Shown here piece after piece: positions 35,207-62,755 of a stretch of 64,000 nt of DNA (positions are counted from its first letter, which is position 1; every line of letters begins with the position of its first letter). The position numbers and the translations under genes were made by a program. The notes beneath the pieces are model-generated. The model did not search any database and was not told where the DNA came from. It was given only the letters and a program-made list of their open reading frames with translations. The stretch is from Candidatus Dormiibacterota bacterium (lineage in GTDB: Bacteria > Chloroflexota > Dormibacteria > CF-121), in assembly GCA_036732165.1 (NCBI GenBank), contig DAINCX010000001.1:81053-145052 (forward strand). Direction: 5' to 3'.

Positions 35207-35209
35207 TTG

Positions 35210-35872: not shown

Positions 35873-36006
35873 GACTTCTCCTTCTCACCCGGGAGGGGGA
35901 CGAACAGGGCGATCACGAACAGCACGATCATCAGGCCGATCAGCAGTAGGTTCGGGATCGAGATGAGGATGAAGCCCCAGTGCAGGTAGCCGGCAGGTGT
36001 ATCCAT
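35869..36006 (-). CDS. Small single-TM protein (about 45 aa)
   Basis: MDTPAGYLHWGFILISIPNLLLIGLMIVLFVIALFVPLPGEKEKS, coupled to the cytochrome b start. The track extends it to 36126. Confidence 0.35.
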   Translation of the reverse strand: MDTPAGYLHWGFILISIPNLLLIGLMIVLFVIALFVPLPGEKEKS

Positions 36007-36104
36007 AGTGGTTTCTACGGTACGCACCGCTGCCGGAGGAGGACACCGACCAAGGTCCCTCCTTCGGGGGGACCTTTCAGCCGCACCTCCGAATTTGCGA
36101 CGAT

Positions 36105-36770: not shown

Positions 36771-36786
36771 CCCGCTTCGTTCAGGG

Positions 36787-37572: not shown

Positions 37573-37691
37573 GCGAGCGCTCCTCAGTCAGTATTGGGAG
37601 AAGTATCCGGTGATCGCTCCATTTCCCCAAGGGGCCATGGGTCCTGACCTGCGTAGGCCAAAGGTCCCGCCGCGCCCTACGCGGCCCGCCC

Positions 37692-39305
37692 CTACGGCCG
37701 CTCGGCGGTCTTGATCGGCAACACGGCGTCGTAGGAGGTTTTGGAGGTTTCCACGACTACCGTCACCATCCAGTTCCCTGCCAGCGACAGCCTTGTGCCC
37801 TCCGCGCTGTAGATCCCAGCCCCCAGGCCTCGCAGCTCGAGGACGGTTTCGCCGGTCTCCGGGCGGCTTTGGAGATCGAACAGCAGGAAGAGGCGGGCTC
37901 CGCTGAGCGGCCGGCCCGTTTTGTAGTCGCGGACCGTCACCGTGAACCGGTTCAGGCCGGCGTATCCCGGGGCGACGTCAAGGTTCACCCGGACGGCGGT
38001 GCCGTGATCGACGCCTGCCACGACGAGGTGCGGAAAATTCTGCGACGCTGCCGCTCGAACGAAGCTCGGTGGCGGCAGGGTGGTAAGAAACGCCGCGGCG
38101 ACCATGATCACCGCAGCCAGCACGAGCTCTCCTCGAGATACCCAGCGCAGCCGGGGAATGCCGGCAACAGCCATTCGCACGTAGCGCCAGCGGTTCGTCG
38201 CCGCCAGCGGCGCGATCGTGATGAACAGCGCCGTCTTGGCCAGTAGCAACCAGCCGAAGGTCGTCGTAAACAGGTTCGACCAGTTCCCGACCTCGTCGAT
38301 CCCGCGAACCAGTCCGGTCAGGATCATGGCGGCAAAGGCGAACCCGGCAACCACGGAGAAACGGCCCACGGCGCGCGCCTTGTCGATCGTCGGCAGACCG
38401 CGGATCCCGACGAGCACGGCCACCAGCCCGCCGATCCACACCGCGTAGCTCAACAGGTGCAACCAGTGGGTGGGGATCATGAGCCAGGCCAGAGGACTGG
38501 AGGCGGCGTGGCTCACGGTCGCATTGGCCAGCATGGCGATGGCGCTGAGGGCGGCACAAATTCCGAGCGCGACCCGCCGAGGGGTTCCCTGCAGTCTCCA
38601 GGCGGCGAGCACCGCCACGCCCGCCGCGACGAGAGGTACGACCACGAGTTCCATCCCATGCGCCAGCGACGTGCCAAGGAAAAAGGACCAGTCGACGCCG
38701 GCGTTCTCACGCGTCGACTCGACGACCATGAACGCCCCGATTAGGGCCAGCACGTCGCCAACACCGACCACGAGCAAGACCGCGAGAGAGAAATCCTGGA
38801 GGGCCAGCAGATCGACCCAGGCGCCGCCCAGGAGAAGCCCATAGCCGGCATCCAGACCCCATCGACCTGTGACCCCGAGCGGTGACGGCGGGGCGGCGGG
38901 TGGGGCGACGGCCAGGGGAATGGGTGGCACTGCCTGGGCGCCGACCGCGAAGGCGAACACGCCGGTGGCGACATGACCGTCAATCGCAGAGACGGTGCGC
39001 CAGCTGACCGTGTAGACCCCATCGCCAAGGGGAGGGAGCGTGATGGCGACGGTCGTCGAAGCGCCCGACACGGCTGACGCGGGCCCGCCGGCCACCTGGC
39101 GACCGGAGGTGTCGAGGATCTGGACCTGCGAGAGCTTCGGATCTGGCGCTTCGGTGAACGTGATGATGACCACGCTCGGCGCGTGCGCCAGCCTGGCTCC
39201 GTCGGGTGGGTCCGACAGGCGCACCAGGGAATGGGCCTCGGCAACGACGCTCAGCGCTAGCATGACGCCACCCGCCAGGAGTACCGCCGTTAGGAACCGC
39301 CGCAC
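37692..39305 (-). CDS. CopC/CopD-family copper resistance fusion protein (YcnJ-like) with C-terminal YtkA/FixH-like domain
   Basis: It has an N-terminal signal peptide and a CopC domain (HSLVRLSDPPDGARL...), then about 8 TM helices (CopD), then a C-terminal beta-rich domain. Confidence 0.8.
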   Translation of the reverse strand: MRRFLTAVLLAGGVMLALSVVAEAHSLVRLSDPPDGARLAHAPSVVIITFTEAPDPKLSQVQILDTSGRQVAGGPASAVSGASTTVAITLPPLGDGVYTVSWRTVSAIDGHVATGVFAFAVGAQAVPPIPLAVAPPAAPPSPLGVTGRWGLDAGYGLLLGGAWVDLLALQDFSLAVLLVVGVGDVLALIGAFMVVESTRENAGVDWSFFLGTSLAHGMELVVVPLVAAGVAVLAAWRLQGTPRRVALGICAALSAIAMLANATVSHAASSPLAWLMIPTHWLHLLSYAVWIGGLVAVLVGIRGLPTIDKARAVGRFSVVAGFAFAAMILTGLVRGIDEVGNWSNLFTTTFGWLLLAKTALFITIAPLAATNRWRYVRMAVAGIPRLRWVSRGELVLAAVIMVAAAFLTTLPPPSFVRAAASQNFPHLVVAGVDHGTAVRVNLDVAPGYAGLNRFTVTVRDYKTGRPLSGARLFLLFDLQSRPETGETVLELRGLGAGIYSAEGTRLSLAGNWMVTVVVETSKTSYDAVLPIKTAERP

Positions 39306-49537: not shown

Positions 49538-49888
49538 TTAGACCTCGTCCTCGTCGTCGACGCCGTCGAGCGTCAGCATGAGCCCGTCCTGCAGGTCATA
49601 GAGGGCGTCCATCGACTCCGCAATCGTCAGGTCCTCGGGCGCTCGATTCCCGAGTGGGTGCTCCATCTCGGCCGCCAGCCGCTGAACTCGGACGGCGAGT
49701 TCGGCCGGCATCTGGGTCTCCTCGGCAATGTTGAGCATCTCGAGCTCATCCAGCAGGCGGTCGATATACCGGATTCGGTTTCGACGCGCGTAGCGCTGCT
49801 CCCGTTCCACATGCCAGCGCTCGCGCAGCGCCGAGATCTGGACCGAGGTCTCCTCGATCATGCGGCCGGTTCCGACTCTGCGAGGCAT
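49538..49888 (-). CDS. Hypothetical acidic protein (about 107-116 aa)
   Basis: This is the C-terminal part of the track ORF 49538..50572. Its upstream 230 codons are an alternative-frame artefact overlapping birA on the other strand. The sequence reads MIEETSVQISALRERWHV...DGVDDEDEV. Confidence 0.45.
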   Translation of the reverse strand: MPRRVGTGRMIEETSVQISALRERWHVEREQRYARRNRIRYIDRLLDELEMLNIAEETQMPAELAVRVQRLAAEMEHPLGNRAPEDLTIAESMDALYDLQDGLMLTLDGVDDEDEV

Positions 49889-49940
49889 GGCTTCCCGAAC
49901 GATTACTGTACGGTCAAAGATCGAATTGGTCAAGAACTCA

Positions 49941-50723
49941 ATGCCCCCCGGGGAGTCCGTCCACCCCTTCGGCCTGGACCATGTGAGCCCCCTGTTGGCG
50001 CCCGGTCCGGTCTCCTGGTTGATCCGGTATGAGCCGTCGACCGACTCCACCCAGGACCTGGCTCGAGCGGCGGCAACGGCCGGGGCGGCGGAGGGGTGGA
50101 CCGTCGTCACCGACTGGCAGCACCAGGGCCGTGGACGCCTCGGCCGGCAGTGGGTGGCGACCGCTGGGCGTGACCTGCTGTTCTCGGCGGTCCTCCGTCC
50201 GCCGGGGCCCTTGCTGAGCCTGCTTCCGCTGCTGGCGGGCCTGGCGGTCGCTGCGGGGCTGCGCGCCGAAACCGGGTTGTCCCTCGATCTGAAATGGCCC
50301 AACGACCTGCTCGCCGACCAACGAAAGCTGGCCGGGATCCTGCTCGAACGTGGGGCGGGCGGCGCCGCCGTGCTCGGCGTGGGGGTCAATGTCAACAGCG
50401 TCGCGGTGGAACTGCCGCCCGGCGCGACCTCCCTTAAGATCGTCCTGGGCCGCGACGTCGGCCGGGAACGGCTGCTCGCCGCTATCCTCGGGGCAATCGG
50501 CGATGCGCTGGCCCACGTCGAGCGCGAGGGAACCGCCTGGATCGTCCCGGCTTGGCGCGCGTCTAGCTCCATGCTGGGGCAGCGAGTCAGCTACCAGCAG
50601 GATGGGACCACCCGTGCCGCCATCGCGGAGGAGATCGAGACCGACGGGGCCCTTTTGGTCCGGCTGGATGACGGCACCCGGCAGCGGCTGTACGCCGGAG
50701 AGGTGCACACGGTGCGGTCCTAG
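49941..50723 (+). CDS. birA: Biotin--[acetyl-CoA-carboxylase] ligase (catalytic domain type, no N-terminal HTH)
   Basis: The motif GRGRLGRQW is present, along with a C-terminal SH3-like tail. The internal start MPPGESV was chosen. Confidence 0.78.
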   Translation: MPPGESVHPFGLDHVSPLLAPGPVSWLIRYEPSTDSTQDLARAAATAGAAEGWTVVTDWQHQGRGRLGRQWVATAGRDLLFSAVLRPPGPLLSLLPLLAGLAVAAGLRAETGLSLDLKWPNDLLADQRKLAGILLERGAGGAAVLGVGVNVNSVAVELPPGATSLKIVLGRDVGRERLLAAILGAIGDALAHVEREGTAWIVPAWRASSSMLGQRVSYQQDGTTRAAIAEEIETDGALLVRLDDGTRQRLYAGEVHTVRS

Positions 50724-50739
50724 CGATACCGACTGTCGG

Positions 50740-51159
50740 TCAGTCGTAGGTCTTCCCGTTGTCCTGGATGTAGCCGCCCGCATGGGTTCCTTGCGGGTCA
50801 TGGTGGGTGAAATGGATCAGGCCCCCCTGTGCGTTCCAGATGTATTCCCCGTGCACCACTACATGGTCGCCTTCCTGAAGGGGAGCCCGCGCGCCGATCG
50901 AAATGTTGTGCTCGACCTCGACCGTGATGCCTCCCGAGGCGAGCTGCAGGATGAACTGCTCATGGACGCCCGTGCCGCTGGTCCGGTCGGACAGCATGCG
51001 CACCACCGTGCCATCGGCCGTCACCTCGACGTTCGACTGGTGGTTCTGGAAATCCTGCACGATCGCCGCGTCATCGGCCGTCGGTGCCGACCCGCAGGCC
51101 GCCAGCGCCAGGGCCAGGCCGAGGCTCAGCAACCGCCTCACGTCCACGACGATACGCAA
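50740..51159 (-). CDS. DUF3465-like lipoprotein
   Basis: The lipobox is LALAACGS. Confidence 0.5.
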   Translation of the reverse strand: MRIVVDVRRLLSLGLALALAACGSAPTADDAAIVQDFQNHQSNVEVTADGTVVRMLSDRTSGTGVHEQFILQLASGGITVEVEHNISIGARAPLQEGDHVVVHGEYIWNAQGGLIHFTHHDPQGTHAGGYIQDNGKTYD

Positions 51160-51202: not shown

Positions 51203-51607
51203 TTAGCTGACTTTCACGTCTCCGACCATGCCGGAATGGATGATGCAGTGGTACTTGAAGTCGCCGGCCGCATTGAAAGTCACCACGAACTTCGAGCCCG
51301 AGCCTTGCAGGCAGGAGTCGAACGTGGTGTTGTCATCCGAGGTCACGCTGTGCTGAGCGGAGTTGTCGACCCAGTCCCATTCCACGGTGTCGCCCTTCTT
51401 GGCCGAGACCGTTGCGGGGGCGTATGCCCCGATGGTGCTCGGGTCGGCGTTGATCTTGACGGTCTGGGCCGCGGTGCCGCTTCCGGCGCCCTTCGGGGTG
51501 CAACTGCTGCCGCTGTTATCCCCGGTGCTACCGCTGCCGCTGCCGCCGCAGGCGGCGAGCAGCATCCCGCTCCCGGCCGCGACGATCGCCATCTTCCATG
51601 CGCTCAC
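51203..51607 (-). CDS. Blue-copper (cupredoxin, amicyanin/plastocyanin-like) lipoprotein
   Basis: The lipobox is LLAACGG. Type-1 Cu ligands H...YHCIIHSGM (C-x2-H-x2-M) are present. Confidence 0.8.
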   Translation of the reverse strand: MSAWKMAIVAAGSGMLLAACGGSGSGSTGDNSGSSCTPKGAGSGTAAQTVKINADPSTIGAYAPATVSAKKGDTVEWDWVDNSAQHSVTSDDNTTFDSCLQGSGSKFVVTFNAAGDFKYHCIIHSGMVGDVKVS

Positions 51608-52066: not shown

Positions 52067-53863
52067 TTAGCCAAGTTTACCAACCATCCGGTCCGCCACC
52101 ATGACAGTAAACAGCAGCGCGAGGTAGGCGATCGAGTAGTCGAAGAGCGGCCGCGACCAGCGGCGACGATGATCGCGCAGGTTGAGGACCGCGAACAGGA
52201 TGAAGGCACCGCCGAGGACAGCGGCCCCGGCCAGGTAGAGGGCGCCCAGCGCCCCGGTGACGAAGAGCATCAGGGTCACGGTGACCAGCAGCAGGGTGTA
52301 CAGGAGGATCTGGCGCTTCGCCTCATCCTCACCGCGAACCACGGGGAGCATCGGGACGCCGACCCGCGCATAGTCGCGCTGGATGCGGAGCGCCAGGGCC
52401 CAGAAATGCGGCGGGGTCCACAGGAAAATGATCGCGAACAGGTAGAGGGCGGTCAGGTCGAGCGAGTGCGTCACCGCGGCCCACCCGACCAGCGGCGGCA
52501 CGGCGCCGGCGGCGCCTCCGATCACGATGTTCTGCGCCGTCGACCGCTTCAGCCAGAGCGTGTAGACGAACACGTAGAAGAGCAGGCCGCTGACGGCGAG
52601 CGTGGCCGCCAGCACGTTCACCCAGAAGGCGAGGAGCACAAAGGCGCCAACGCCAAGCGAGATGCCGAAGGCCAGGGCATGCGCTGGGGCAATCCGGCCA
52701 TCGGGGATGGGGCGCCGTCGCGTCCGGTACATCTCGCCGTCGATGTCGCGGTCGATCCAGCAATTGATGGCCCCGGCACCGGCCGCCGAGAGGGCCCCGC
52801 CGAGCAGGGTCAGGATCACGAGCCCGGTCGAGGGCCAGCCGCGGCTGGCGATCATCATCCCGCCCAGCGCGGTGATCAACAGGAGCACGATGATGCGCGG
52901 CTTGGCGAGACTGACGTAGTCGCGCACGACGTCCCGCGCCGGACGACGTGGCGACCGCGCGGCCGCGCCGCGGAGCCCGACTGGCTCGTCAACCAGCGGA
53001 AGCCGGCTGGCGAGCACGGCCAGCACGACCGTCCCCGCCCAGACGGCGGTGGCCAGCGCGAGATGAAGACCGCGGAGCGCGGCGGGGAGATGCAGCAGCA
53101 CGACAGCCGCCCCAACCGCCACCTGGAGTGCGAGGGCCGTCAAGGTCAGCGCCACCGTGGCCCGCACCGCCGGGTTGCGACGATGGCGCCGCACCACATT
53201 GATCAGCCCGGCGATGATCAGCACGCCGATCAGGGCGGCCATGCCGCGATGGAGCAGCTGGACCGCGGGGAACCGATCGAAGGCAAAGGTGAATCCGCCG
53301 CCACACAGCGGCCAGGCGTTGCAAGCCCCGCTGGCCCCGCTACCGACCACCAGGGACCCGCTGAGGATGAGGAGGTAGGTTCCCACGGCTGCGGCGCGCG
53401 CCCATCGCGCCGCCACGCGGTCAATCGATGGTTGCCCGGGCTCGGTAAAGGTCGCGGTCGCCGTGACGCAGAGCGCGCCCAGCAGAGCCATGGCGGTGGC
53501 GAGGTGCGCCAGGACGATGATGGGCGGCAACTCGAGCCGCACCGTGATGGCACCCAGCAGGACCTGCACGATGAGCAGGGCCAGCGCGATGGTGGCGGGC
53601 GCCACGATGTCCCGCCGGTGCCGCCAGGCCAGCCAGGCCACGCCGGCGGTGACGACGACGAGGGTGCTGGCCAGTGAGGCCGTGGTGCGATGCGAGTATT
53701 CGATGATCGCGTGGAGTTCGAGCGGCGGATAGGGACGCCCGTGACAGAGCGGCCAGTCCGGGCACCCCAGGCCCGAACCGGAGACGCGGACGACGCCGCC
53801 GAGCACCACCAGCGCATAGGTGACCACCGCGGTGACCACCGTCAACGCGCGAAACGCTTTCAC
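52067..53863 (-). CDS. ctaA-ctaB: Fused haem A synthase (CtaA/COX15) - protohaem IX farnesyltransferase (CtaB/COX10)
   Basis: The N-terminal half has GCPDWPLCHG and the His-rich helices of CtaA. The C-terminal half has the UbiA-family prenyltransferase motifs of CtaB (NCWIDRDID, DYARVGVPMLP). Confidence 0.85.
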   Translation of the reverse strand: MKAFRALTVVTAVVTYALVVLGGVVRVSGSGLGCPDWPLCHGRPYPPLELHAIIEYSHRTTASLASTLVVVTAGVAWLAWRHRRDIVAPATIALALLIVQVLLGAITVRLELPPIIVLAHLATAMALLGALCVTATATFTEPGQPSIDRVAARWARAAAVGTYLLILSGSLVVGSGASGACNAWPLCGGGFTFAFDRFPAVQLLHRGMAALIGVLIIAGLINVVRRHRRNPAVRATVALTLTALALQVAVGAAVVLLHLPAALRGLHLALATAVWAGTVVLAVLASRLPLVDEPVGLRGAAARSPRRPARDVVRDYVSLAKPRIIVLLLITALGGMMIASRGWPSTGLVILTLLGGALSAAGAGAINCWIDRDIDGEMYRTRRRPIPDGRIAPAHALAFGISLGVGAFVLLAFWVNVLAATLAVSGLLFYVFVYTLWLKRSTAQNIVIGGAAGAVPPLVGWAAVTHSLDLTALYLFAIIFLWTPPHFWALALRIQRDYARVGVPMLPVVRGEDEAKRQILLYTLLLVTVTLMLFVTGALGALYLAGAAVLGGAFILFAVLNLRDHRRRWSRPLFDYSIAYLALLFTVMVADRMVGKLG

Positions 53864-53875
53864 CCCCGCCCCGGG

Positions 53876-55513
53876 CTACGCGTGCTCGGCCGCCGCCGTG
53901 GCCCCGCGCCGCACATCGCGCAGCGGCCGCGCGCTGCGGACCGGCGGCACGGTGTCGAAGTTATGCGCCGGCGGCGGCGACGAGGTCGCCCACTCGAGCG
54001 TGTTTCCTTCCCACGGATCGGTCGGAGCCCGACGCCCGGCGCGGATACTGATGGCGAAATTGATCATGAAGATCAGGATCGCCGCGGCGATCATGAACGC
54101 CCCGATGGTGGCCACCAGGTTCCAGGTCGCCCAGTCGGTGCGGTTGCTCTGCCAGATCGCGATCCGGCGCGGCATCCCTTCGAGCCCGAGGAAGTGCATG
54201 GGCATGAAGGTGACGTTGAAGCCGACCAGCTGGATCCAGAACTGGAGCTTGCCCAGCGTCTCATTCAGGTAGCGGCCCGTGATCTTGGGAAACCAGTAGT
54301 AAAAGGCCGAGAATACGCCGAAGACGCTGCCCCCGAAGAGGACGTAATGGATGTGGGAAACCACCCAGTAGGTGGCATGGACCTGGTAGTCGACCGCCAG
54401 CGAGGCCATGAAGACGCCGTCGACCCCTCCCATCAGGAACATCAACACGAACCCGACCGAGAACAGCATCGCCGTGGTGTATTTGATGGACCCTCCCCAG
54501 AGGGTCGCAAGCCAGTTCAACACCTTGACCCCCGAGGGCACGCCGATCATGGCCGTCGTCGCCATGAAGAACTCCTGCAGGGCCAGCGGCATCCCGGTGG
54601 TGAACATGTGGTGCGCGAAGACCATGAAACCGAGCACGCCGATGGCCGCCATGGAAAAGGCCATCGCCCGGTAGCCAAAGATCGGTTTGCGGCTGAAGAC
54701 GGGGATCACTTCAGAGACGATCCCGAAGGCGGGCAGGATCATGATGTAGACCGCCGGGTGGGAATAGAACCAGAAGATGAACTGGTAGAGCAGCGGGTCG
54801 GAGCCGTGCTGGAAGAAGTGGGTCCCGAGCTGCCGGTCCATGAGCACCATGGCGAGCACGCCGGCCAGGAAGGGGCTGGCGAGCAGCGTCAGGGCCGCGG
54901 TGACTTCCACCGACCAGACGAAGAGGGGGAGCCGGAACCAGGTCATGCCGGGGGCCCGCATGTTGTGAATGGTCACCAGGAAGTTGATCGCCCCCATGAT
55001 CGAGGCGATGCCCAGGATATGGAGGCCGAGGATCCAGAGATCCTGGCCGACGCCGACGGCATAGGCCCGCTCGGTCAGCGGCACGTAGCCGGTCCAGCCG
55101 GCGGCCGCGGCGCCAGTCTGGGTGAGAAGCCCGCTGTACATGGTGAGCCCGCCAAGTGGGATCAGCCAGAAGGACAGGGCGTTGATCCGCGGGAACGCCA
55201 TGTCGCGGGCGCCGATCATTAGCGGCACGAAATAGTTCCCGAAGCCGGAGAAGACCGGGATGATCCAGAGGAAGATCATGGTGGTCCCGTGGAGGGTCAT
55301 GATCTGGTTGTAGAGCTTCGCGGAGAGGAAGTCGTTGTTCCCGACCGCCAGCTGGGTCCGCATCAAGAGGGCCATGATGCCGCCCACCAGGAAGAAGAAA
55401 AACGTCGTGTAGAGGTACATGATGCCGATCTTCTTGTGGTCGACGGTCGTCAGCCACTCGATCACACCGCTGGATCTCGCGGTGCTCCGGCGGGGAAGCG
55501 CGATGCTTGCCAT
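53876..55513 (-). CDS. ctaD: Cytochrome c oxidase subunit I
   Basis: HKKIGIMYL is present with twelve TM helices. An AAGGAG Shine-Dalgarno lies 6 nt before the ATG at 55513. The track extension to 55648 is low-complexity. Confidence 0.93.
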   Translation of the reverse strand: MASIALPRRSTARSSGVIEWLTTVDHKKIGIMYLYTTFFFFLVGGIMALLMRTQLAVGNNDFLSAKLYNQIMTLHGTTMIFLWIIPVFSGFGNYFVPLMIGARDMAFPRINALSFWLIPLGGLTMYSGLLTQTGAAAAGWTGYVPLTERAYAVGVGQDLWILGLHILGIASIMGAINFLVTIHNMRAPGMTWFRLPLFVWSVEVTAALTLLASPFLAGVLAMVLMDRQLGTHFFQHGSDPLLYQFIFWFYSHPAVYIMILPAFGIVSEVIPVFSRKPIFGYRAMAFSMAAIGVLGFMVFAHHMFTTGMPLALQEFFMATTAMIGVPSGVKVLNWLATLWGGSIKYTTAMLFSVGFVLMFLMGGVDGVFMASLAVDYQVHATYWVVSHIHYVLFGGSVFGVFSAFYYWFPKITGRYLNETLGKLQFWIQLVGFNVTFMPMHFLGLEGMPRRIAIWQSNRTDWATWNLVATIGAFMIAAAILIFMINFAISIRAGRRAPTDPWEGNTLEWATSSPPPAHNFDTVPPVRSARPLRDVRRGATAAAEHA

Positions 55514-55538: not shown

Positions 55539-56507
55539 TCATGGGGTGACGGTGATGGTGCCCTGCATGTTGAAGGCCGTGTGGAAGGTGCAGACGTAAT
55601 GGTAGGTGCCCGGTTTGCCGAACTTGAGCTCGTACTTGTCGCCGCCATTCATCGTGTCCGAGGTCGGGACCTGCGAATTGTCGAAGGTGACGTTGTGCGC
55701 GGATGAGCCCTGGTTCACCCACTGGACGACATCCCCGACCTTGACCGTGGCACTGGTCGGGACGAACTTGAACTCGTCGGTTTCGCCAACCGTCTTCGCC
55801 GCGGCAACCCCGGTGACCTTGCTCGCCGTCGCGGGGCCGCCGCCGGGAGGCGGCGTTCCCTGGCCACTGGCCTGTTTTTGACGTTGCGCGTACCACGCCT
55901 GGTAGGCGCTCGGCGTCATCGCCTGGACCTTGACCTGCATCAGGTAGTGCCCGACGCCGCACAGCTCATTGCATTCGCCGTAATAGAAGCCGGGGTGATC
56001 GGCCTGGAGCCAGCCGTGATTCATCTGGCCGGGGATGGCGTAGATCTGTCCGCCCAGTCGGGGGGCCCAGAACGAATGCAGCACGTCGCGGCTGGTGACC
56101 TGGAGCTGGATCGGTTCCCCGGTGGGAATCACCAACGTATCCGACCTGACCCGGCTGTCCGGATAGGTGTACAGCCAGGCGAACTGCACGCCGACGACCT
56201 TGACGGTCATCGCCGGTGGCGGGCCGTTGCGGACGTAGTCCATCCGCAGTGTGGTCCGGATGAAGAGGAAGGACAGGATCACGACCGGGATCAGCGTCCA
56301 GACGATCTCGAGCCGGGTATTGCCGTGAATCTGGGCGGGCTCCCGCTCGTCCCGGCGGCGGAAGCGCAACGCGGCGTAAATCAACAGCCCACCGACGATG
56401 ATGAGGACCGCCATGGCGATCCAGAAGATACCGGTATAGATGCTGAGGATCTCGCAGGCGTTGGGGCCTGCGCAGTCGAGCGGGCTGACATCGACGGCTG
56501 GTATCAC
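55539..56507 (-). CDS. ctaC: Cytochrome c oxidase subunit II with C-terminal fused plastocyanin-like blue-copper domain
   Basis: The CuA site is H...CNELCGVGHYLM. The C-terminal 100 aa carry the type-1 Cu pattern AHNVTF...YHYVCTFHTAFNM (C-x2-H-x4-M) in place of a cytochrome c domain. Confidence 0.88.
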   Translation of the reverse strand: MIPAVDVSPLDCAGPNACEILSIYTGIFWIAMAVLIIVGGLLIYAALRFRRRDEREPAQIHGNTRLEIVWTLIPVVILSFLFIRTTLRMDYVRNGPPPAMTVKVVGVQFAWLYTYPDSRVRSDTLVIPTGEPIQLQVTSRDVLHSFWAPRLGGQIYAIPGQMNHGWLQADHPGFYYGECNELCGVGHYLMQVKVQAMTPSAYQAWYAQRQKQASGQGTPPPGGGPATASKVTGVAAAKTVGETDEFKFVPTSATVKVGDVVQWVNQGSSAHNVTFDNSQVPTSDTMNGGDKYELKFGKPGTYHYVCTFHTAFNMQGTITVTP

Positions 56508-56571: not shown

Positions 56572-57006
56572 TCATCGATGGAAGAGCCACCAGCGGCCTC
56601 CAGGCTGCCGCACCCCATTGCGCTCCTGGGCAGTCGCCCGAGCATCATGCATGGCGTCGTACCAGAAGGTGAGCGCGCCAAGGAAGGTCGCGATGAAGAC
56701 CAATAAGGAAAGGATCTCGACGAAGAGCGACAGCAGGACCATCGTGCTGCCGCGGGGTTTCCACCAGGCCAGCAACTCCGCGGTAGCGCCCGGGATGTTC
56801 AGCGTCAGATAGAAAAGGCCGAGCACGCCGGCGAGGAAGATCACCGCCTTTTTGGGTTGGCGATGGTAGAGCTGACCGAGGCCGGGGACCACCGACAACC
56901 AGGTCGCGAGCCGGACGCTCGCGCGGCGTCGCGCGGCCAGGAGCGGCGTGGGGTGCGGTTGAACCATGGGCCTAGCGCTGGAACATGCGGTAGCAGTAGT
57001 AGGCAA
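56572..57006 (-). CDS. Hypothetical membrane protein
   Basis: 144 aa with several TM helices. Confidence 0.4.
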   Translation of the reverse strand: MPTTATACSSARPMVQPHPTPLLAARRRASVRLATWLSVVPGLGQLYHRQPKKAVIFLAGVLGLFYLTLNIPGATAELLAWWKPRGSTMVLLSLFVEILSLLVFIATFLGALTFWYDAMHDARATAQERNGVRQPGGRWWLFHR

Positions 57007-57235
57007 GGATGAGCAGGGTGCCCACCGCCCAGATCAGCACGAAGAAGAAGTCCCCGACTCCCGGGTCTCGGGTCAGATTGAGAAGGTAGATCAGGCCCAG
57101 CACTCAGCCGCCTGCCTTGTGCGCCTTGGTGATGTCGAGCAGATTCTCCGCGACGATCACCATGGCGGTAAAGCCGACCAGGATCGCGAAGGCGACCAGG
57201 GTTCCGATCAGATCCTTGAGCTGCTGGCGTCTCAT
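56972..57235 (-). CDS. Two tandem small single-TM ORFs (43 aa each) separated by an in-frame TGA at 57104-57106
   Basis: ORF 57104..57235 reads MRRQQLKDLIGTLVAFAILVGFTAMVIVAENLLDITKAHKAGG, and its ATG overlaps the cytochrome c stop as ATGA. The codon after the TGA is GTG in the same frame, opening VLGLIYLLNLTRDPGVGDFFFVLIWAVGTLLILAYYCYRMFQR (56972..57103). Neither ORF is in the track. Confidence 0.35.
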
Positions 57236-58260
57236 GGCAGCGTCGCGTACTGCTGCCACATCCGAATCCAGTGGACCAGCAAATCGATGTTCTGATTGAT
57301 CGGCTGCGGCAAGAGTTTTTGAAGACCCCAGGCCGGCATGATCGTCCCCTTGTGCTCCTCACCCTGATTGCCGAAGTAGATGCACCGGTGATAGTAATCG
57401 TCGTTGAAGAATCCGAGCCGGTCCTTGTCATTGAGGGGCGGCCCTTTCCCACCTTCTCCGGTCGCGCCGTGGCACTGGGCACAGCTGTTCTCGTACAACT
57501 GGGGCGCGGTGTCGTAGACGCCGAAGGGGTTCTTCACCAGGTTCGTGTGGGCACCGGCCTGGGTCGTGGCCTGGCGGTTGCCGTTGTGGCAGATGATGCA
57601 ACCCGTCTCGTCGATGCCGAGCCCCTTGTAGGCGCTGGGAATGAAGCCGGTGATCTGGGCCACGACCGGCTTATTGGTCTGGGGGTCGGTCACCACCTTG
57701 CCGTTGGTGTCGAGCACGTAGTACGGCTGGGCCTGGGGGTTCAAACAGGCCGACGCGGTCGTCGCCGCCGGCGTACCGGCAGGACCGCCCGCACTGGCGG
57801 GGCTGGCCGACGGCGAGGGTTTGGCGCTAGCCGCGACCGACGGTTTCGCGCCGGCCGACGCGGACGGCTTGGGCGAGGGACTGGCTACGGTGGTGCTCAC
57901 GACTGGGGCCGGTCGGCAGACCAGGGTGTCCTGCCCGTATTTGGCGAAGACCACGTCGTTGATGACCGAGGGGTGGTTGGGGCCAATCCGCTTGGCCGCC
58001 TCCACCGGGCCGATCTTGGCGATGTCGGGGACGTGGCAGGTGATGCACCGCTCCACGACGAACTGGCTGTTGACCTGCACCTTGGGAAAGAGCTGCTGCA
58101 CGCCGATCGGGAAATCGGCCCCGTACTGCTGCGCGTATTTCTGCTGGATCGGCAGCCACGGACGGTTGAAATCCTGATAGAAGGCGAAGGCCAGCAGGGC
58201 GAGGAACAGCGCGCTGACGACGAGAAAGGCCCGGCCTAGCACGAGGTCCCCGGGGCACAC
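57232..58260 (-). CDS. Membrane-anchored tri-haem c-type cytochrome of the bc complex
   Basis: Three CxxCH motifs are present (CITCH, CIICH, CAQCH), with a Pro/Ser/Ala-rich linker. Confidence 0.78.
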   Translation of the reverse strand: MCPGDLVLGRAFLVVSALFLALLAFAFYQDFNRPWLPIQQKYAQQYGADFPIGVQQLFPKVQVNSQFVVERCITCHVPDIAKIGPVEAAKRIGPNHPSVINDVVFAKYGQDTLVCRPAPVVSTTVASPSPKPSASAGAKPSVAASAKPSPSASPASAGGPAGTPAATTASACLNPQAQPYYVLDTNGKVVTDPQTNKPVVAQITGFIPSAYKGLGIDETGCIICHNGNRQATTQAGAHTNLVKNPFGVYDTAPQLYENSCAQCHGATGEGGKGPPLNDKDRLGFFNDDYYHRCIYFGNQGEEHKGTIMPAWGLQKLLPQPINQNIDLLVHWIRMWQQYATLP

Positions 58261-58673
58261 TGCGGATTACCGAGCACCCAGCCCCAGTCCCAGCTGAACT
58301 CGTGACCGCGGAAGAAGGTGCCGATGATCACCAGCGCGACCACGATGGTCATGTAGAGGGCAAACAGGATGATGGCCAGCTTCCGCTCGGCCGGACGCCG
58401 GCTCGGGTTCCGGTCGAGGAAGGGCACCAGGATCATCAGCACGATGACGAAGGTGGGGAACGCTACGCCGGCCATCAGCGGCGGGAACCGGGAGAGGAGT
58501 TCCTGGAGCCCGAGGAAGTACCAGGGCGCCTTCGACGGGTTGGGCGTCATGCCGGGGTTCGCCTTCCCGAGCAGCGGCGCCTGCAGGAAGATCGAGACCA
58601 GCAGGAGGAAGATCGTCATGGCCACGGCGGCGATGAATTCCTTGAAGACAAACTCGGGGAACGACACGATCAT
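58236..58673 (-). CDS. Cytochrome bc complex subunit IV (cytochrome b C-terminal domain, PetD/QcrC-N-like)
   Basis: The PWYFLGLQELL (PEWY-type) motif and three TM helices are present. The internal start MIVSFPEF was chosen. The track extension to 58826 overlaps the cytochrome b6 gene. Confidence 0.75.
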   Translation of the reverse strand: MIVSFPEFVFKEFIAAVAMTIFLLLVSIFLQAPLLGKANPGMTPNPSKAPWYFLGLQELLSRFPPLMAGVAFPTFVIVLMILVPFLDRNPSRRPAERKLAIILFALYMTIVVALVIIGTFFRGHEFSWDWGWVLGNPQCAPGTSC

Positions 58674-58786
58674 CTCGTCGTCGCTGTCGTCCCGGATCGC
58701 GACGGGGGTGTCGGCGGACCGCTGGCGACGCCGGGCCTCGGCTCGCTCCCGTGCCTCGATGCGTTCTCGCGCGTCGGTAGCCGTGG

Positions 58787-59518
58787 TCAGAGCCCTCCGC
58801 TGAACCCGTCTTTGCGGACGCGCCAAAAATGGATGACCATCAGGAGGAAGCCCGCAAGAGGCAAGCCGACCACATGCAGCACGTAAAAACGCAGCAGGGC
58901 CGCGTCACCAACGATCTTGCCACCCAGCAACAGGTAGCGCGTGTAGGGTCCGGCGATCGGCGCGTACTTGGCCATGTTGGTGCCGACCGTGACGGCCCAG
59001 ATCGAGAGCTGATCCCAGGGCAGCAGGTACCCGGTGAAGCTCAGCAGGAGGGTGATCAGCAATAAGAGGGTCCCAACGCCCCAGTTGAACTCGCGTGGCT
59101 TCTTGTAGGCGCCGGTCAGGAAGACCCGCGCCATGTGCAGCCAGACGGTGATCACCATGGCGTGCGCGGCCCACCGATGCATGTTCCGGATCAGGCCGCC
59201 AAAGGTGACCACGAACTGGAGGTCGCGCATGTCCTGGTAGGCGTGGTTGGTGCTCGGCACGTAATAGAACATCAGGTACAGCCCGGTGACCGTCAGCACA
59301 ATGAAGAGGAAGAAGGACAGGCCGCCAAGGCAGAGCGTGTACGACATCCGGATCCAGGATCGCCGCACCCTGACCGGGTGGATATGCAGGACGAAGTTGG
59401 TAAGCGCCGTCCGGGCCGCGATCTTGTCCGTCAGCGGCAACCCGTGGCGGAATACCGCGCCAACCATCTGCTCGATGACCGAATAGATCTCGTCAACGGC
59501 AGCGCGGATGACCCTCAT
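58787..59518 (-). CDS. qcrB: Cytochrome b6 (split cytochrome b, haem-binding N-terminal domain)
   Basis: His pairs lie in helices B and D ([37 protein letters not shown]). The protein is 243 aa. Confidence 0.9.
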
Positions 59519-59531
59519 GAACCCTCCCCGA

Positions 59532-60083
59532 TCAAACCTTCAGGCGGAAACTCCGAGCCACGACGATCGACCGGTCGATGAACAGCTTTCCGTCCCGGGC
59601 GACCTCCACGTGGACGCGGTCCATCGGACGCGGCGCTGGGCCGAAAAAGTTGACCGCGTCCCGATAATACCGGCTGCCGTGACAGGGACACTTGAAGCCC
59701 GGCAGCGCGTTCTGCTGCTGATTCGCCCGTAGCCCGTGGACCCCCTGCGCGATCAGATCGCTGGTGACATCGGGAAAGTACCGGGGCGTGCAGCCGAGAT
59801 GGGTGCAGATCAGGCTGATTGCGTAGAAGCCATCAGGGTCTCGGTTGATGACCACCCGCTTGTCGGTGAGCACGGTCGTGGACCCGACGGCATAGCTGCC
59901 CGGGGCGTCGGCTTTGAACGCGGCCGGATCCTCGTACAGGGCGTTCGGCTGCAGGAATCGGACACTCTGGAAGAGCGCCAGCGCCGAGGCGCCGGCGAAG
60001 GCCAGCCAGCCCGACATGGCGAAGAAGCTGCGCCGCGACATCTGGCGGCTGTCGGTCAGGAGGCGTCGGAGGCCAGCAGCCAT
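59532..60083 (-). CDS. qcrA: Rieske [2Fe-2S] iron-sulfur subunit with Tat signal
   Basis: A twin-arginine motif (RRSFFAM) and the cluster boxes CTHLGC and CPCHGS are present. Confidence 0.9.
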
Positions 60084-60267: not shown

Positions 60268-62274
60268 CTATCCCCGGGTCAGGGGCCTCAAGCCCGCCCG
60301 GCCCTCGGTCAGGGCCTTGCGCTTGGTGACGTACTCATGGACCAGGGAGACCACCGTGGCGTGACTCCACGTGAGCGGGGAAACCGAGACCGGCGCCTTG
60401 CTATAGGGATCCAGCTGCTCCGACAGCACGCCGCTCGGCATCGCCGAGCTGGCGACCCAGTCCAGGATCTCGCGCGCGCGGGTCAGCTCGTCAGGGCTGG
60501 TGGCTCGAGCAACCAGCCATTGCGCGTACCACATGGTGCAGATGAACCAGGGGTTACCGGGGACGTTGCGGATGTCCTGGCTGACCTGGTAGTAGTAATC
60601 GTTCTCGTAGCGGGCGATGCCGCCCACCTCGGTCTTACACCAGAGTCGATCGTAGACGGCCTGCATGGTGCTGACGACCTGCGGATCGTCGGCCGGCAGC
60701 ATCCCAAAGTAGAAGAGCCCGTAGACGCTCGAGTCGATGGTCAGGTCCTTCGCGGTGGTGCCGTCCGGCCGAATGTAGATCCGGCGGATGAAGCGGTTGA
60801 GTTCGCTGTCGAACAGCCAGGTCGTGGTCGCGACCTTCATCGCCGCGGCGACCTTCCGGTACTTATCGGCCAGCGCCATCTCCCCGTACAGCTGCGCAAA
60901 GTTGCCCGCCGCCTGCAACCCCGCCCAGACCGCCCCCACCGTGAAGCTCATCACGCCTCGACGCTCTTCCCAGAGGTCGTAGCTCGGCTGCGGGAGGCCG
61001 GTGACGGGGTCGACGTATCGCGCCAGGAAGTCGCCGGCCAGGATGATGAGGCCCCGGTAGTAGGTCTTGAAGAACTCGAAGTCCCGATGGCCGTCGTAGT
61101 GCTGCCAGAGCGCATAGAGCACGATCCCGGTCTCGTCCTCCTGGATCGGGTACTGCGGCCGACCCGCGGCATCGACCCAGGGGTGCCAGCTGCTGCCCGG
61201 TTCGCCTGCCGGGGTGTACTTGTGGCGAAAGTACCCATCGGCGGTCACGATCCGGGCGCAGAGCTCGAAGAAGCGTCGCGGCACGTCGAGATAGCCCGCC
61301 TGGTCCATCGCGTAGGCCGCCATCGCGCCATCCCGCGGCCACATGTAGCTGTAGGTGTCGCGCGCGAACTTGATGATCTCCGAATCGTTCGCAGCCAGGA
61401 TCGCACCCCCGTTGTCGACCTGCGTCCGGACGATGAGCAGGCTCCGGCGGTACAGTTCCGCCACCCCGGGCGACAGGTCTGCGAACTCGCGCTCTTCCTT
61501 GTTGACCCAGGCGATCCAGTAGCACCGCGTCCGCTCCAGGAAGGCCTCCGGGGTTCGCAGTGCCACCGCATCCGCTACCGCCTGCAGGCCGATGAGGTCC
61601 TTGGCGGCGATCAGCCAGTGGTAGGCGGTGGCGGACTGCCCCGCGGGGACACGCCCCAGGTGGAGCGCCAGTGTCATGTCGACGGACCCCTGCTCGATCG
61701 GGTTGTTGCCGAGCACGCCGTCCTCCGCGTCGATCCAGGTGCCCCGCGCCCCGCCAACTTCTTTCTTTCCGCAGGCGTAGGCGTCCAGCCCGATCCGGTC
61801 CTGGACCTGGCCACAGGCGGCGAAATAACGCCGGCCCTTGTAGGCGACGAGACCCTTGACCGCCGGGTAGTACATGACGGTGTCGCCGACCTCGGTGCCG
61901 TAGATGTGCCAGTCGTAGTGAAAGAAGAGCCGGATCTCCCGCTCGGAGCCCTCGTTGCGCACCTTGACCCGGCGGATCAACAGGTCGCGCCCCAGGTCGA
62001 CGGTGTCGTTGAACGTCAGGCTGACCTGGAGGTTTGGATGGTGCAGCGTGACGTTGGTGACCAGCGTGTCAGGCTGGTAGACGAGCTGCCGGGTCCACGC
62101 CGGATCGTCCAGCCAGGAGAAGGCGCCATCGGCCCAGACCCCGAAGCGGCACTGTTCGCCGTTCGTGTGGTTCTCCTGCCCGACCCACGGATAGTAGATG
62201 TCGCGGAGCTGGTAGTGGTGATCGAAGTTGATCAGCAGGGCACCGTTGCCGATCGGCAGGTCCCGGGACATTCG
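60268..62274 (-). CDS. Glycoside hydrolase family 15 (glucoamylase/trehalase-like)
   Basis: An N-terminal beta-sandwich is followed by an (alpha/alpha)6 catalytic domain, GH15-like throughout. The internal start MSRDLPIGNG was chosen. Confidence 0.78.
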   Translation of the reverse strand, partial: RMSRDLPIGNGALLINFDHHYQLRDIYYPWVGQENHTNGEQCRFGVWADGAFSWLDDPAWTRQLVYQPDTLVTNVTLHHPNLQVSLTFNDTVDLGRDLLIRRVKVRNEGSEREIRLFFHYDWHIYGTEVGDTVMYYPAVKGLVAYKGRRYFAACGQVQDRIGLDAYACGKKEVGGARGTWIDAEDGVLGNNPIEQGSVDMTLALHLGRVPAGQSATAYHWLIAAKDLIGLQAVADAVALRTPEAFLERTRCYWIAWVNKEEREFADLSPGVAELYRRSLLIVRTQVDNGGAILAANDSEIIKFARDTYSYMWPRDGAMAAYAMDQAGYLDVPRRFFELCARIVTADGYFRHKYTPAGEPGSSWHPWVDAAGRPQYPIQEDETGIVLYALWQHYDGHRDFEFFKTYYRGLIILAGDFLARYVDPVTGLPQPSYDLWEERRGVMSFTVGAVWAGLQAAGNFAQLYGEMALADKYRKVAAAMKVATTTWLFDSELNRFIRRIYIRPDGTTAKDLTIDSSVYGLFYFGMLPADDPQVVSTMQAVYDRLWCKTEVGGIARYENDYYYQVSQDIRNVPGNPWFICTMWYAQWLVARATSPDELTRAREILDWVASSAMPSGVLSEQLDPYSKAPVSVSPLTWSHATVVSLVHEYVTKRKALTEGRAGLRPLTRG

Positions 62275-62329
62275 GAACATTATCCGTTGCGCGCGGCCCG
62301 CATCGCGGCGCCGGGCCCGCATTGGTACG

Positions 62330-62755
62330 ATGCCGGGCGTGGCCGAGGCGGAGTCGGAGCCCGATGTCCTGACCGTTCGGTCACGCCAGCGAGCGGACGC
62401 CCTGGACATCACAGGGCAGGTGCAAGGCGTCGTCGGGCGGAGCCGGATCGAGCGCGGCGTCTGCCACGTCTACGTCCCCCACACCACGGCCGGCGTCTTC
62501 ATCAACGAGAACGCCGACCCTGACGTGTTGCACGATTTCCTGACCAGCCTGGACCAGCTCGTCCCGTGGGTGAAGGCCTACCGGCACGCGGAAGGCAACG
62601 CCGCGGCGCACATCAAGGCCACCCTCATCGGAACCTCACAACAGGTCCCGGTCCGCCAGAGCAAGCTGGCCCTGGGGCGCTGGCAGGGCATCTTCTTGAT
62701 CGAATTCGACGGGCCGCGCGAGCGCCAGGTGCGCATCACGGTCGTCCCCGGCTGA
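62330..62755 (+). CDS. yjbQ: YjbQ-family protein (UPF0047; secondary thiamin-phosphate synthase-like)
   Basis: HTTAGVFINENADPDV and AHIKATLIGTS are present. The internal start MPGVAEAE was chosen. The track start at 62228 would overlap the GH15 start. Confidence 0.78.
   Translation: MPGVAEAESEPDVLTVRSRQRADALDITGQVQGVVGRSRIERGVCHVYVPHTTAGVFINENADPDVLHDFLTSLDQLVPWVKAYRHAEGNAAAHIKATLIGTSQQVPVRQSKLALGRWQGIFLIEFDGPRERQVRITVVPG

Follow-up and report, generated by a model that had tools for sequence, protein, structure and literature searches.

The ctaC gene of the Dormibacterota window analysed here (the whole stretch of DNA, 64,000 nucleotides in length) encodes a haem-copper oxidase subunit II that continues, within the same polypeptide, into a type-1 cupredoxin, and we consider it probable that the product is an A2-type subunit II whose flexibly tethered blue-copper domain serves as the point of electron entry, feeding CuA and replacing the haem c domain of caa3 oxidases. 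The Dormibacterota fusion is itself real and conserved, and apparently undescribed, with no published account of a CtaC-cupredoxin fusion found in a literature search whose reach left out most subscription journals. We infer the copper occupancy of the domain, the direction and partners of its electron transfer, and its mobility.

The gene lies at 55539 to 56507 on the minus strand (stop codon included) and is a single continuous ORF of 322 amino acids, with a GTG start and no internal stops, assigned from the ORF, its Pfam matches and TIGR02866. In order, the protein consists of a COX2_TM region, a CuA domain, a Gly/Pro linker and a plastocyanin-like type-1 copper domain. The preliminary description had placed COX2 and a Copper-bind or cupredoxin domain on one polypeptide, and this is borne out, all Pfam matches lying above cut-off: COX2_TM (PF02790) at residues 11-81 scores 46.4 bits against a cut-off of 22.8, COX2 (PF00116) at residues 123-196 scores 78.2 against 22, Copper-bind (PF00127) at residues 238-320 scores 52.7 against 21.2 and Cupredoxin_1 at residues 246-320 scores 40.1 against 27. 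CtaC also matches the NCBIfam model for CoxB (TIGR02866, 197.3 bits, cut-off 147.7) and, with scores above the family cut-offs, the CuA ligand set, a two-helix anchor and an adjoining subunit I gene, it has what is expected of a subunit II. The model for actinobacterial aa3 CtaC (NF050117) gives 132.6 bits, below its cut-off of 250.

It would seem improbable in the extreme that the fusion is an artefact in which a frameshift, a mis-assembly or a chimeric contig brought ctaC and a separate cupredoxin gene together. Errors of this kind do occur in metagenome-assembled genomes, from one of which the window probably derives, yet no positive sign of one was found; the same architecture is present as one ORF in 120 of the 120 best database matches (clusters from JGI, ENA, NCBI and Logan) and in 9 independent genome loci whose synteny is identical, and because of this recurrence we exclude a frameshift or assembly artefact. 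Furthermore, GC3 of the ctaC frame is 0.87 throughout, and homologues share the junction and the linker. A split or frameshifted ctaC is therefore rejected on the continuity of the ORF, its recurrence in independent assemblies and its uniform GC3, and the fusion stands.

The membrane anchor of CtaC is the two-helix hairpin typical of subunit II (residues ~20-92, 56232 to 56450, minus strand), recognised by COX2_TM and predicted by AlphaFold2 (AF2) as helices at residues 15-48 and 64-94. It is followed by the CuA cupredoxin domain (residues 93-205, 55893 to 56231, minus strand), where the normal CuA site claimed from first inspection is confirmed, with all six ligands present (H144, C179, E181, C183, H187 and M190), the last five in the motif CNELCGVGHYLM at residues 179-190, which has the pattern C-x-E-x-C-x3-H-x2-M. 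Within this domain W111, in the QFAW motif of GVQFAWLYTY, is invariant in the family, and it may be the equivalent of the Trp in the QWYW motif of Paracoccus (Trp121 in Paracoccus numbering), the electron-entry residue near CuA. The Gly/Pro linker that had been described after the CuA domain is likewise evident in the sequence as a flexible Gly/Pro/Ala-rich stretch (residues 206-237, 55797 to 55892, minus strand, containing QASGQGTPPPGGGPATASKVTGVAAAKTV), which has the lowest pLDDT and the highest dN/dS of the protein and is variable in length across the family, being ~10 residues shorter in most members.

The remaining part of the protein, residues 238-322 (55542 to 55796, minus strand), is the plastocyanin-like type-1 copper domain, identified from PF00127, its ligands and a beta-sandwich in the AF2 model. 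Its assignment as a cupredoxin holds, as it matches the HMMs of both PF00127 and Cupredoxin_1 and its ligand set is complete, and so does the type-1 site of the form H...C-x2-H-x4-M that had been read from the sequence: H271 lies in AHNV, and C306, H309 and M314 lie in CTFHTAFNM at residues 306-314. All six CuA and all four type-1 ligands are invariant in 121 of 121 family members. The best PDB sequence matches of the domain are the plastocyanins 1bxu and 1pcs, and the plastocyanin equivalog TIGR02656 gives 50.4 bits against a cut-off of 87.85; by its loop and its best PDB matches the domain resembles plastocyanin but, judged from its sequence, it is not a plastocyanin orthologue.

Estimates of dN/dS are 0.09-0.13 for the transmembrane region, 0.07-0.23 for the CuA domain, 0.12-0.32 for the linker and 0.12-0.17 for the type-1 domain, all of them approximate because dS is near saturation (~1). 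With the same approximation, purifying selection on the type-1 domain is similar in strength to that on the CuA domain. AF2 was run on two constructs, full-length CtaC and the soluble residues 93-322. The cupredoxin domain was predicted with a pLDDT of 86-98 as an all-beta sandwich, as expected of the Greek-key fold of blue copper proteins, whose ligand loop includes a short helix, the linker had a pLDDT of 57-70, and the CuA and type-1 domains were not confidently docked in either run (pTM 0.50 and 0.56). A confident fold, a low-confidence linker and these pTM values fit a domain that is tethered and mobile.

The closest structural parallel is with caa3 oxidases. The best PDB match of CtaC is subunit II of the Thermus caa3 oxidase (2yev_B, E 1.4e-45, 41% identity over 191 columns), which is also the best fold match in a Foldseek search of the PDB with the CtaC model, a search that returned subunit II structures only. 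The nearest relatives without the fusion have a Cytochrom_C domain or a CxxCH motif after the CuA domain, at the position of the cupredoxin; these relatives and the match to 2yev_B uphold the earlier statement that in caa3 oxidases a fused cytochrome c occupies this place. The caa3 (A2) oxidases of Thermus thermophilus (PDB 2yev), Rhodothermus marinus and Bacillus subtilis have the same two transmembrane helices, CuA site and C-terminal fused domain, and share with the Dormibacterota enzyme an A2-type subunit I with the YSHPxV motif. Their subunit II, however, ends in a haem c domain, whereas the Dormibacterota CtaC ends in a type-1 cupredoxin and lacks CxxCH. Furthermore, subunit I of the Thermus enzyme is fused to subunit III, whilst the Dormibacterota CtaD is unfused and consists of a COX1 domain only, and no COX3 was found in the 64-kb window by tblastn with two COX3 queries. 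Since the fused domain is a type-1 cupredoxin, with no CxxCH, and neither a subunit I-III fusion nor COX3 was found, the name caa3 is not applicable.

The genes around ctaC form part of an 11-gene block that is conserved in Candidatus Dormibacterota metagenome-assembled genomes (MAGs) and runs from a Rieske gene to an amicyanin-like lipoprotein, including Rieske, b6, subunit IV, a tri-haem cytochrome c, a small membrane protein, the CtaC-cupredoxin, an A2-type CtaD, CtaA-CtaB and the lipoprotein; the order of bc, cox and cupredoxin genes is kept in 10-12 loci. Three of the MAG labels ('Chloroflexia' for L001, 'Acidoferrum' for L008 and 'Eisenbacteria' for L023) are at odds with near-identical synteny and were disregarded. 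All of these genes lie on the minus strand. The Rieske iron-sulfur subunit (59532 to 60083; PF00355, 29.6 bits) carries CTHLGC and CPCHGS, and is followed by a cytochrome b6-type subunit (58787 to 59518; PF00033, 144 bits), which among PDB entries is closest to the b6 of cyanobacteria and chloroplasts (E ~1e-44), and by a subunit IV resembling the cytochrome b C-terminal part or PetD (58236 to 58826; PF00032, 44.6 bits).

The upstream bc complex had been credited with a tri-haem cytochrome c, and this proved correct: the gene at 57232 to 58260 encodes a membrane-anchored protein of 342 amino acids with an N-terminal transmembrane helix, a first haem site (CITCH), a ~55-residue Pro/Ala/Ser linker and then the second and third haem sites (CIICH and CAQCH), in conserved synteny and with all three CxxCH motifs in 11 of 11 loci. 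Pfam recognises Cytochrom_C or Cytochrome_CBB3 in its C-terminal part, and among PDB entries it has only a weak match, to actinobacterial QcrC. Between this gene and ctaC lies that of a small membrane protein (56572 to 57006) with a weak match to DUF6677/DUF5683, below the Pfam cut-off, whose position is kept in 12 loci and which may be a putative subunit of the complex.

Downstream of ctaC, and separated from it by 25 nt with an AAGGAG Shine-Dalgarno sequence, is ctaD (53876 to 55513; PF00115, 544 bits), encoding a subunit I of 545 amino acids from the ATG at MASIALPRR. It has FWFYSHPAVY at residue 250, the helix VI motif (YSHPxV) of the A2 type, a type defined by its channel tyrosine (PMC7300363). 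Haem A synthase and haem O synthase are encoded next as a ctaA-ctaB fusion (52067 to 53863; PF02628 and PF01040), a single syntenic ORF of 598 amino acids. The amicyanin-like cupredoxin lipoprotein reported at 51203 to 51607 is also as described, a protein of 134 amino acids with a 35-bit match to Copper-bind (PF00127), the lipobox LAAC and His86 followed by CIIHSGM; both the lipobox and the C-x2-H-x2-M loop are present in 9 of 9 loci, including that of a sister lineage with an unfused CtaC. Further cupredoxins are encoded elsewhere in the window, among them a two-domain lipoprotein at 36787 to 37572. A scan for promoters and terminators in 50.4-60.4 kb gave counts equal to those expected from shuffled sequence, and Rfam gave no matches in 49-62.5 kb.

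On the basis of this gene content, electrons would pass from menaquinol through the complex of Rieske, b6 and subunit IV to the membrane-anchored tri-haem cytochrome c, and from there to the fused type-1 copper at its exposed His309 edge, either directly or by way of the operon's amicyanin-like lipoprotein. The type-1 domain, held at the outer face of the membrane by a flexible Gly/Pro linker of 14-24 residues, would then reduce CuA, probably via the conserved entry site at Trp111, and CuA would pass electrons to haem a, the haem a3-CuB centre and O2. If the type-1 site has the high potential of plastocyanin-like sites, its transfer to CuA would be slightly uphill. Every carrier on the proposed route would be anchored or fused, as would be expected of an organism with no periplasm to retain soluble carriers, Dormibacteraeota having been inferred to be monoderm (bioRxiv 10.1101/2021.08.23.457424). 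The copper-mediated relay from bc complex to oxidase that had been suggested at the outset is a reasonable reading, and nothing found here contradicts it.

The sister lineage L009 bears on whether the fused domain is the entry point. It has the same operon and a CtaC that is 68% identical but has no fused domain, and it keeps the lipoprotein cupredoxin; a chain of this type can thus do without the fused domain, and CuA evidently has another reductant there, presumably the lipoprotein cupredoxin or the tri-haem cytochrome. Where it is present, the fused domain may be an accessory rather than an obligate entry. This lends some weight to a different arrangement, which we regard as rather unlikely, whereby either of those two carriers would reduce CuA directly as the main path and the type-1 domain would be a secondary port for other extracytoplasmic donors, such as other cupredoxins or dehydrogenases, or a one-electron buffer. 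The additional cupredoxins of the window, the two-domain lipoprotein included, and the lack of any fixed docking of the domain in the AF2 predictions would also suit a secondary port. Against it, however, the ligands are invariant in every family member and the domain is under selection comparable to that on the CuA domain, it sits exactly where caa3 oxidases have their haem c domain, the main entry in those enzymes, and the operon offers no candidate for an alternative donor.

A role outside respiratory electron transport appears more doubtful still. For AcoP, a membrane-bound cupredoxin that partners the Acidithiobacillus oxidase, chaperone-like properties have been proposed alongside an electron-transfer role (PMC10804444), and a cupredoxin domain could by analogy act mainly to stabilise, protect or help metallate CuA or CuB. 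Neither a Sco nor a PCuAC gene was seen in the operon, which is a weak point in favour of such a role, as the scan covered only part of the window. The four ligands of the domain (His, Cys, His and Met) are, however, those of a canonical electron-transfer type-1 site with the loop of plastocyanin, the PCuAC motif H(M)X10MX21HXM (motif from PMC9145763) is absent, and L009, with its unfused CtaC, assembles the same oxidase without it. We therefore consider this an improbable explanation, and return to electron entry through the fused domain as the preferred reading.

Blue copper proteins are familiar partners of oxidases: plastocyanin reduces the cyanobacterial aa3 oxidase, and free cupredoxins associated with oxidases include sulfocyanin SoxE in the Sulfolobus SoxM supercomplex and auracyanin in Chloroflexus. 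More generally, type-1 copper proteins link a quinol-oxidising complex or other donor to a CuA oxidase, and their genes often lie within the operon of the oxidase (10.1101/2020.03.01.968255; PMC10804444; PMC5155288); AcoP, for example, binds the Acidithiobacillus oxidase (PMC10804444). AcoP and rusticyanin of Acidithiobacillus, SoxE, auracyanin and plastocyanin are all separate polypeptides, whereas the Dormibacterota domain is fused, and it is the lipoprotein cupredoxin at 51203-51607 that is the direct analogue of these free carriers.

A blue copper carrier that is likewise built covalently into a haem-copper oxidase subunit is found in the ba3 oxidases of haloarchaea, where halocyanin is fused to subunit IIa (PMC3128077). 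That enzyme, however, is an archaeal B-type oxidase in which halocyanin is N-terminal to the single helix of IIa, separate from the CuA-bearing subunit II, whilst the Dormibacterota enzyme is bacterial and A2-type, with its cupredoxin C-terminal to CuA in the same chain; the halocyanin model TIGR03102 gives CtaC 44.3 bits against a cut-off of 93.8. Three-domain copper nitrite reductases (NirK) also have a cognate redox partner tethered to them, which may be haem c or a type-1 cupredoxin, the two being interchangeable between lineages (PMC6400189, PMC13324648), but this is a different enzyme of a different pathway. Tethered domains can moreover have roles beyond simple electron delivery (PMC13324648).

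Dormibacterota are abundant, uncultured bacteria of soil and permafrost, for whose respiration the only summary to date is 'cytochrome c terminal oxidase' (bioRxiv 10.1101/2021.08.23.457424). Should electrons enter through the fused domain, CtaC would represent a third form of A-type subunit II, with blue copper, beside the plain aa3 form and the caa3 form with haem c. Annotating oxidases by gene name would in that case conceal a difference in donor chemistry, which bears on respiratory demand for copper as against iron in oligotrophic soils. A soluble fragment with CuA and type-1 copper would also provide a natural, genetically encoded system in which to measure intramolecular transfer from type-1 copper to CuA.

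The fusion is not unique to the window; members of a large Dormibacterota family have it as a rule, and it is also found in Chloroflexota, with hundreds of copies of the CtaC-cupredoxin fusion in databases. The Chloroflexota COX2-cupredoxin fusions (P0196, P0215, P0306, P0307 and P0340, from Dehalococcoidia and Limnocylindrales MAGs) have the same overall architecture and sit in complete cox operons (COX1, COX3, CtaG and CtaAB) with extra free cupredoxin genes. Their fused cupredoxin is however of another type (PHDF...C-x-VHP-x2-M, C-x2-H-x3-M) and only ~25% identical to that of Dormibacterota, and they are nested among different plain-COX2 relatives, so that an independent fusion is probable. 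Sequence comparison of these short domains thus suggests at least two independent COX2-cupredoxin fusions, and a single origin of all of them is disfavoured by the ~25% identity, the different loops and the different nearest relatives.

Among the few candidates compared, the closest free relative of the Dormibacterota fused domain is P0183 (53% identical), whose gene follows CtaB, CoxIV and CtaG in L031, and that of the Chloroflexota type is a cupredoxin from the cox cluster of L028, which is 44-47% identical to the P0215 domains. As two unrelated types of fused cupredoxin are each nearest to a free cupredoxin of a cox cluster, these apparently convergent fusions would constitute genomic 'Rosetta-stone' evidence in support of an entry role, and point to operon-encoded cupredoxins as physiological donors of oxidases. 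We propose, more tentatively and as a possibility that we do not favour, that in Dormibacteria complexes III and IV are linked by carriers that are all tethered and in part copper-based, that the fusion of a cox-cluster cupredoxin to COX2 has arisen convergently at least twice in the Chloroflexota/Dormibacterota supergroup, and that haem c and type-1 copper are interchangeable plug-ins of A-type oxidases. In such a link the di-haem head of the tri-haem cytochrome would move on its flexible arm of ~55 residues, the blue-copper domain of the oxidase, on a flexible arm of its own, would be a swinging shuttle to CuA, and the lipoprotein cupredoxin would be a third tethered carrier.

The origin of the Dormibacterota fused domain in a recent duplication of the neighbouring lipoprotein gene is rejected, as the two are 31% identical and differ in loop lengths, and P0183 is closer. 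One of the Chloroflexota proteins, P0215, has two cupredoxin domains in tandem.

The gene ctaC (55539..56507, - strand) is one unbroken reading frame of 322 codons with a GC3 of 0.87, as in the genuine genes of the window (66% G+C). Pfam places COX2_TM (residues 11-81), COX2 (123-196), Cupredoxin_1 and Copper-bind PF00127 (238-320; 52.7 bits at a threshold of 21.2) on this single polypeptide, which also lies above the cut-off of TIGR02866, the NCBIfam CoxB equivalog (197 against 147.7 bits). The CuA site is normal, with the loop CNELCGVGHYLM at residues 179-190 and His144 upstream, and is followed by an interdomain stretch rich in Gly, Pro and Ala (...GQGTPPPGGGPATASKVTGVAAAKTV...) and a C-terminal domain with a complete type-1 site, His271 (AHNV) and Cys306-x2-His309-x4-Met314. 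The preliminary description, which had read these same three parts from the sequence, is correct in all particulars. The short extracytoplasmic N-terminal tail ahead of TM1 carries an almost invariant PLDCAGPNAC (residues 10-18; window 56454-56480, -), whose cysteines C12 and C18 possibly form a disulfide or bind metal; in longer homologues a signal-peptide-like extension precedes this motif.

A search of 5.8 billion protein clusters for relatives of CtaC gave 1133 matches, and the best 120 of these (61-91% identity, those with names being Candidatus Dormibacteraeota MAGs) all have the identical four Pfam domains; when they are aligned with CtaC the six CuA and four type-1 ligands are invariant (121/121). 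Among genomes sampled at one per GTDB species, the fusion is present at nine loci, the closest being Candidatus Dormibacter and Dormibacterota MAGs (84-89% identity), and eight also have the full gene order of the window cluster, the contig of the ninth (L005) ending after ctaAB. The taxonomic survey suggested in the preliminary description therefore finds the same architecture repeatedly, and a frameshift into a separate frame, also raised there, is answered by the recurrence of the single ORF in all these matches and loci. When the window is compared codon by codon with the nine loci, dN/dS lies at 0.12-0.17 in the cupredoxin domain and at 0.07-0.23 in the CuA domain; these values are approximate because dS is ~1, and the linker is the fastest-evolving part. 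The fusion is neither a one-off nor an artefact, to which we would give only the slimmest of chances. Three loci labelled 'uncultured Chloroflexia', 'Candidatus Acidoferrum sp.' and 'Candidatus Eisenbacteria' (L001, L008 and L023) have near-identical synteny and CtaC 64-89% identical, and look like mislabelled or mis-binned MAG contigs of the Dormibacterota lineage.

By both sequence (E 1.4e-45) and fold the best solved relative of CtaC is 2yev_B, the caa3 subunit II of Thermus thermophilus, and the two halves of the protein are not matched together by any PDB chain. In a representative library of 1.84 billion sequences the entire Dormibacterota fusion family forms one 50% cluster (P0048), the next-closest full-length subunits II (P0228, P0192, P0212, P0139, P0133) have Cytochrom_C after the CuA domain, and loci from Anaerolineae, Acidimicrobiia, Gemmatimonadales and Chloroflexota have CxxCH at the cupredoxin position; the cupredoxin of CtaC therefore occupies the electron-entry position of haem c. 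Whereas caa3 oxidases have a haem c domain after CuA, CtaC has a type-1 cupredoxin there; lacking the defining haem c, it falls outside the caa3 type but very probably functions like a caa3 subunit II.

The surrounding cluster, all on the - strand, runs from genes for a Rieske protein (59532-60083), a b6-type cytochrome (58787-59518; best PDB matches cyanobacterial b6, E ~1e-44), subunit IV (58236-58826), a membrane-anchored tri-haem cytochrome c (57232-58260; CITCH, a linker, CIICH, CAQCH) and a small membrane protein (56572-57006) through CtaC-cupredoxin to CtaD (53876-55513; 545 aa, A2-type by YSHPAV in its FWFYSHPAVY motif), a CtaA-CtaB fusion (52067-53863), a cupredoxin lipoprotein (51203-51607; lipobox LAAC, amicyanin-type loop CIIHSGM) and a DUF3465 lipoprotein (50740-51159). 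This order, including an upstream GH15 gene, is kept in L001-L004 and L006-L010, and to the contig ends of L005 and L012. Both the tri-haem cytochrome of the upstream bc complex and the separate amicyanin-like lipoprotein had been noted beforehand and hold up well, with the three CxxCH motifs kept in 11/11 loci and the lipobox and copper loop in 9/9. There is no subunit III gene in the oxidase operon, and tblastn with two COX3 queries found none in the 64-kb window, in contrast to the distant Chloroflexota fusion operons L028 and L029, where COX3 is present.

Several features of this cluster are observations in their own right. The tri-haem cytochrome is not close to any solved structure (actinobacterial QcrC matches at E 2e-3), and its residues ~115-170 form a ~55-residue Pro/Ala/Ser low-complexity linker from the haem-1 domain to the di-haem C-terminal module, which suggests a long flexible arm. 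Residue 63 of the b6-type cytochrome is the Cys of a CLGG motif, at the position where haem ci is covalently bound in b6f and Firmicute b6c complexes, which is suggestive of a b6c-type complex carrying an additional haem. The small membrane protein (sub-threshold matches to DUF6677/DUF5683) always lies between the cytochrome c gene and ctaC in the window and L001-L012, and could be an additional subunit of the oxidase or of a supercomplex. The GH15 glycoside hydrolase gene (60268-62412, -) is immediately upstream of Rieske, syntenic in L001-L010 and L012 (11 loci), and a biotin-protein-ligase-like ORF (49860-50723, +; GRGRLGRQW) borders the other end.

We consider it fairly likely that the fused domain is a tethered blue-copper electron-entry module. 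Electrons would exit the b6-type complex via its tri-haem cytochrome and be handed to the fused type-1 Cu, with or without the lipoprotein cupredoxin as an intermediate; from there they would move on to CuA, haem a and the a3-CuB site. Every carrier in this proposed chain is fused or membrane-anchored, which is consistent with the inference that Dormibacteraeota are monoderm (bioRxiv 10.1101/2021.08.23.457424). AlphaFold2 models from a 116-sequence alignment are highly confident for the cupredoxin domain (pLDDT 86-95 full-length, 88-98 in a soluble construct), moderately so for the CuA domain and of low confidence for the linker (57-70). The pTM is 0.50 (full-length) and 0.56 (soluble construct), with no reliable docking between domains; the model therefore favours two folded domains on a flexible tether.

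The same operon occurs in the sister lineage L009 (label 'Chloroflexi bacterium CF_121'), whose CtaC is 68% identical across the shared part and ends ~25 residues past the CuA loop; as ctaD starts 14 nt further on, there is no space for a cupredoxin domain. A contig-truncated locus labelled Limnocylindria (L012) closely resembles it. The lipoprotein cupredoxin is retained in L009 (62% identity, ligands intact), and therefore such a chain can run without the fusion, the anchored free cupredoxin and/or the tri-haem cytochrome having to reduce CuA there. The fused domain might accordingly be only a side entry or electron buffer where it occurs, which we regard as rather unlikely beside the tethered entry module.

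As to where the domain came from, a recent local duplication of the neighbouring lipoprotein cupredoxin can be set aside, because the two are only 31% identical and the copper loop of the fused domain is longer. A closer free relative (53%) is P0183, a lipoprotein whose two plastocyanin-like domains stand in tandem and which shares the Gly-rich lead-in. Its gene closes a cox cluster (L031), following those for CtaB, a CoxIV-like protein and CtaG; the same kind of biotin-protein-ligase-like gene borders that cluster. Other COX2-cupredoxin fusions occur in Chloroflexota (Dehalococcoidia MAGs P0306 and P0307, Limnocylindrales P0340, P0196 and P0215), within cox operons that are complete and include COX3 and CtaG, but their cupredoxin is of another type, PHDF...C-x-VHP-x2-M, ~25% identical to the Dormibacterota domain (P0215 and P0340 compared). 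P0215 (L029 8001-9500) has two such domains in tandem, 82% identical mutually and 44-47% identical to their nearest free relative among the few compared, a cupredoxin encoded in the L028 operon. Both fusion families are nested among plain-COX2 relatives, and these sequence relationships are most easily accounted for if a cox-cluster-type cupredoxin was joined to subunit II on at least two independent occasions; by the Rosetta-stone argument such cupredoxins would be functional partners of CuA. The operon of P0215 also encodes a 399-aa protein (L029 12240-13439) with a faint Cyt_c_ox_IV match and a C-terminal cupredoxin (CTVHPNM). The representative library also holds many long proteins of 600-2900 aa (P0123, P0124, P0125, P0127, P0132, P0169) in which 6-10 plastocyanin-like domains follow one another, each with 33-38% identity to the fused domain; these proteins may be multi-copper 'wires', and P0123 has several TM segments at its N-terminus and an anchor at its C-terminus.

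That blue copper proteins can donate electrons to CuA oxidases is well established, so the fusion is no categorical surprise, and its architecture is already visible in databases, as some family members are auto-annotated 'cytochrome c oxidase subunit II/plastocyanin'. A full-text literature search, in which subscription journals are thinly covered, yielded no account of a CuA subunit with a type-1 cupredoxin fused to it. The nearest published arrangements include halocyanin fused to subunit IIa in haloarchaeal ba3 oxidases (PMC3128077), a proposed III-to-IV transfer via cupredoxin in acidophilic archaea (PMC5155288) and the tethered cupredoxin or cytochrome domains of three-domain nitrite reductases (PMC6400189, PMC13324648). 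Another is found in Acidithiobacillus, where a cup/AcoP gene adjoins COX2 (10.1101/2020.03.01.968255; PMC10804444); an AcoP-like protective or assembly role for the fused domain seems to us improbable. The tethered entry module is mechanistically plausible, and the fusion itself is genuine, experimentally tractable and widespread across a phylum that is important and uncultured.

Finally, the window contains a second copper/redox cluster (34256-39305, -). It encodes a CopC-CopD-YtkA fusion protein (37692-39305, -), a 220-aa cytochrome b N-terminal-like protein (35210-35872, -), a 316-aa protein with no Pfam match (34256-35206, -) and a 261-aa lipoprotein with two cupredoxin domains (36787-37572, -), which has a weak sub-threshold match to the PQQ-associated MSMEG_3727 family (0 matched stretches) and an unusually long copper loop, H...C-D-A-H-...~22 residues...-M.
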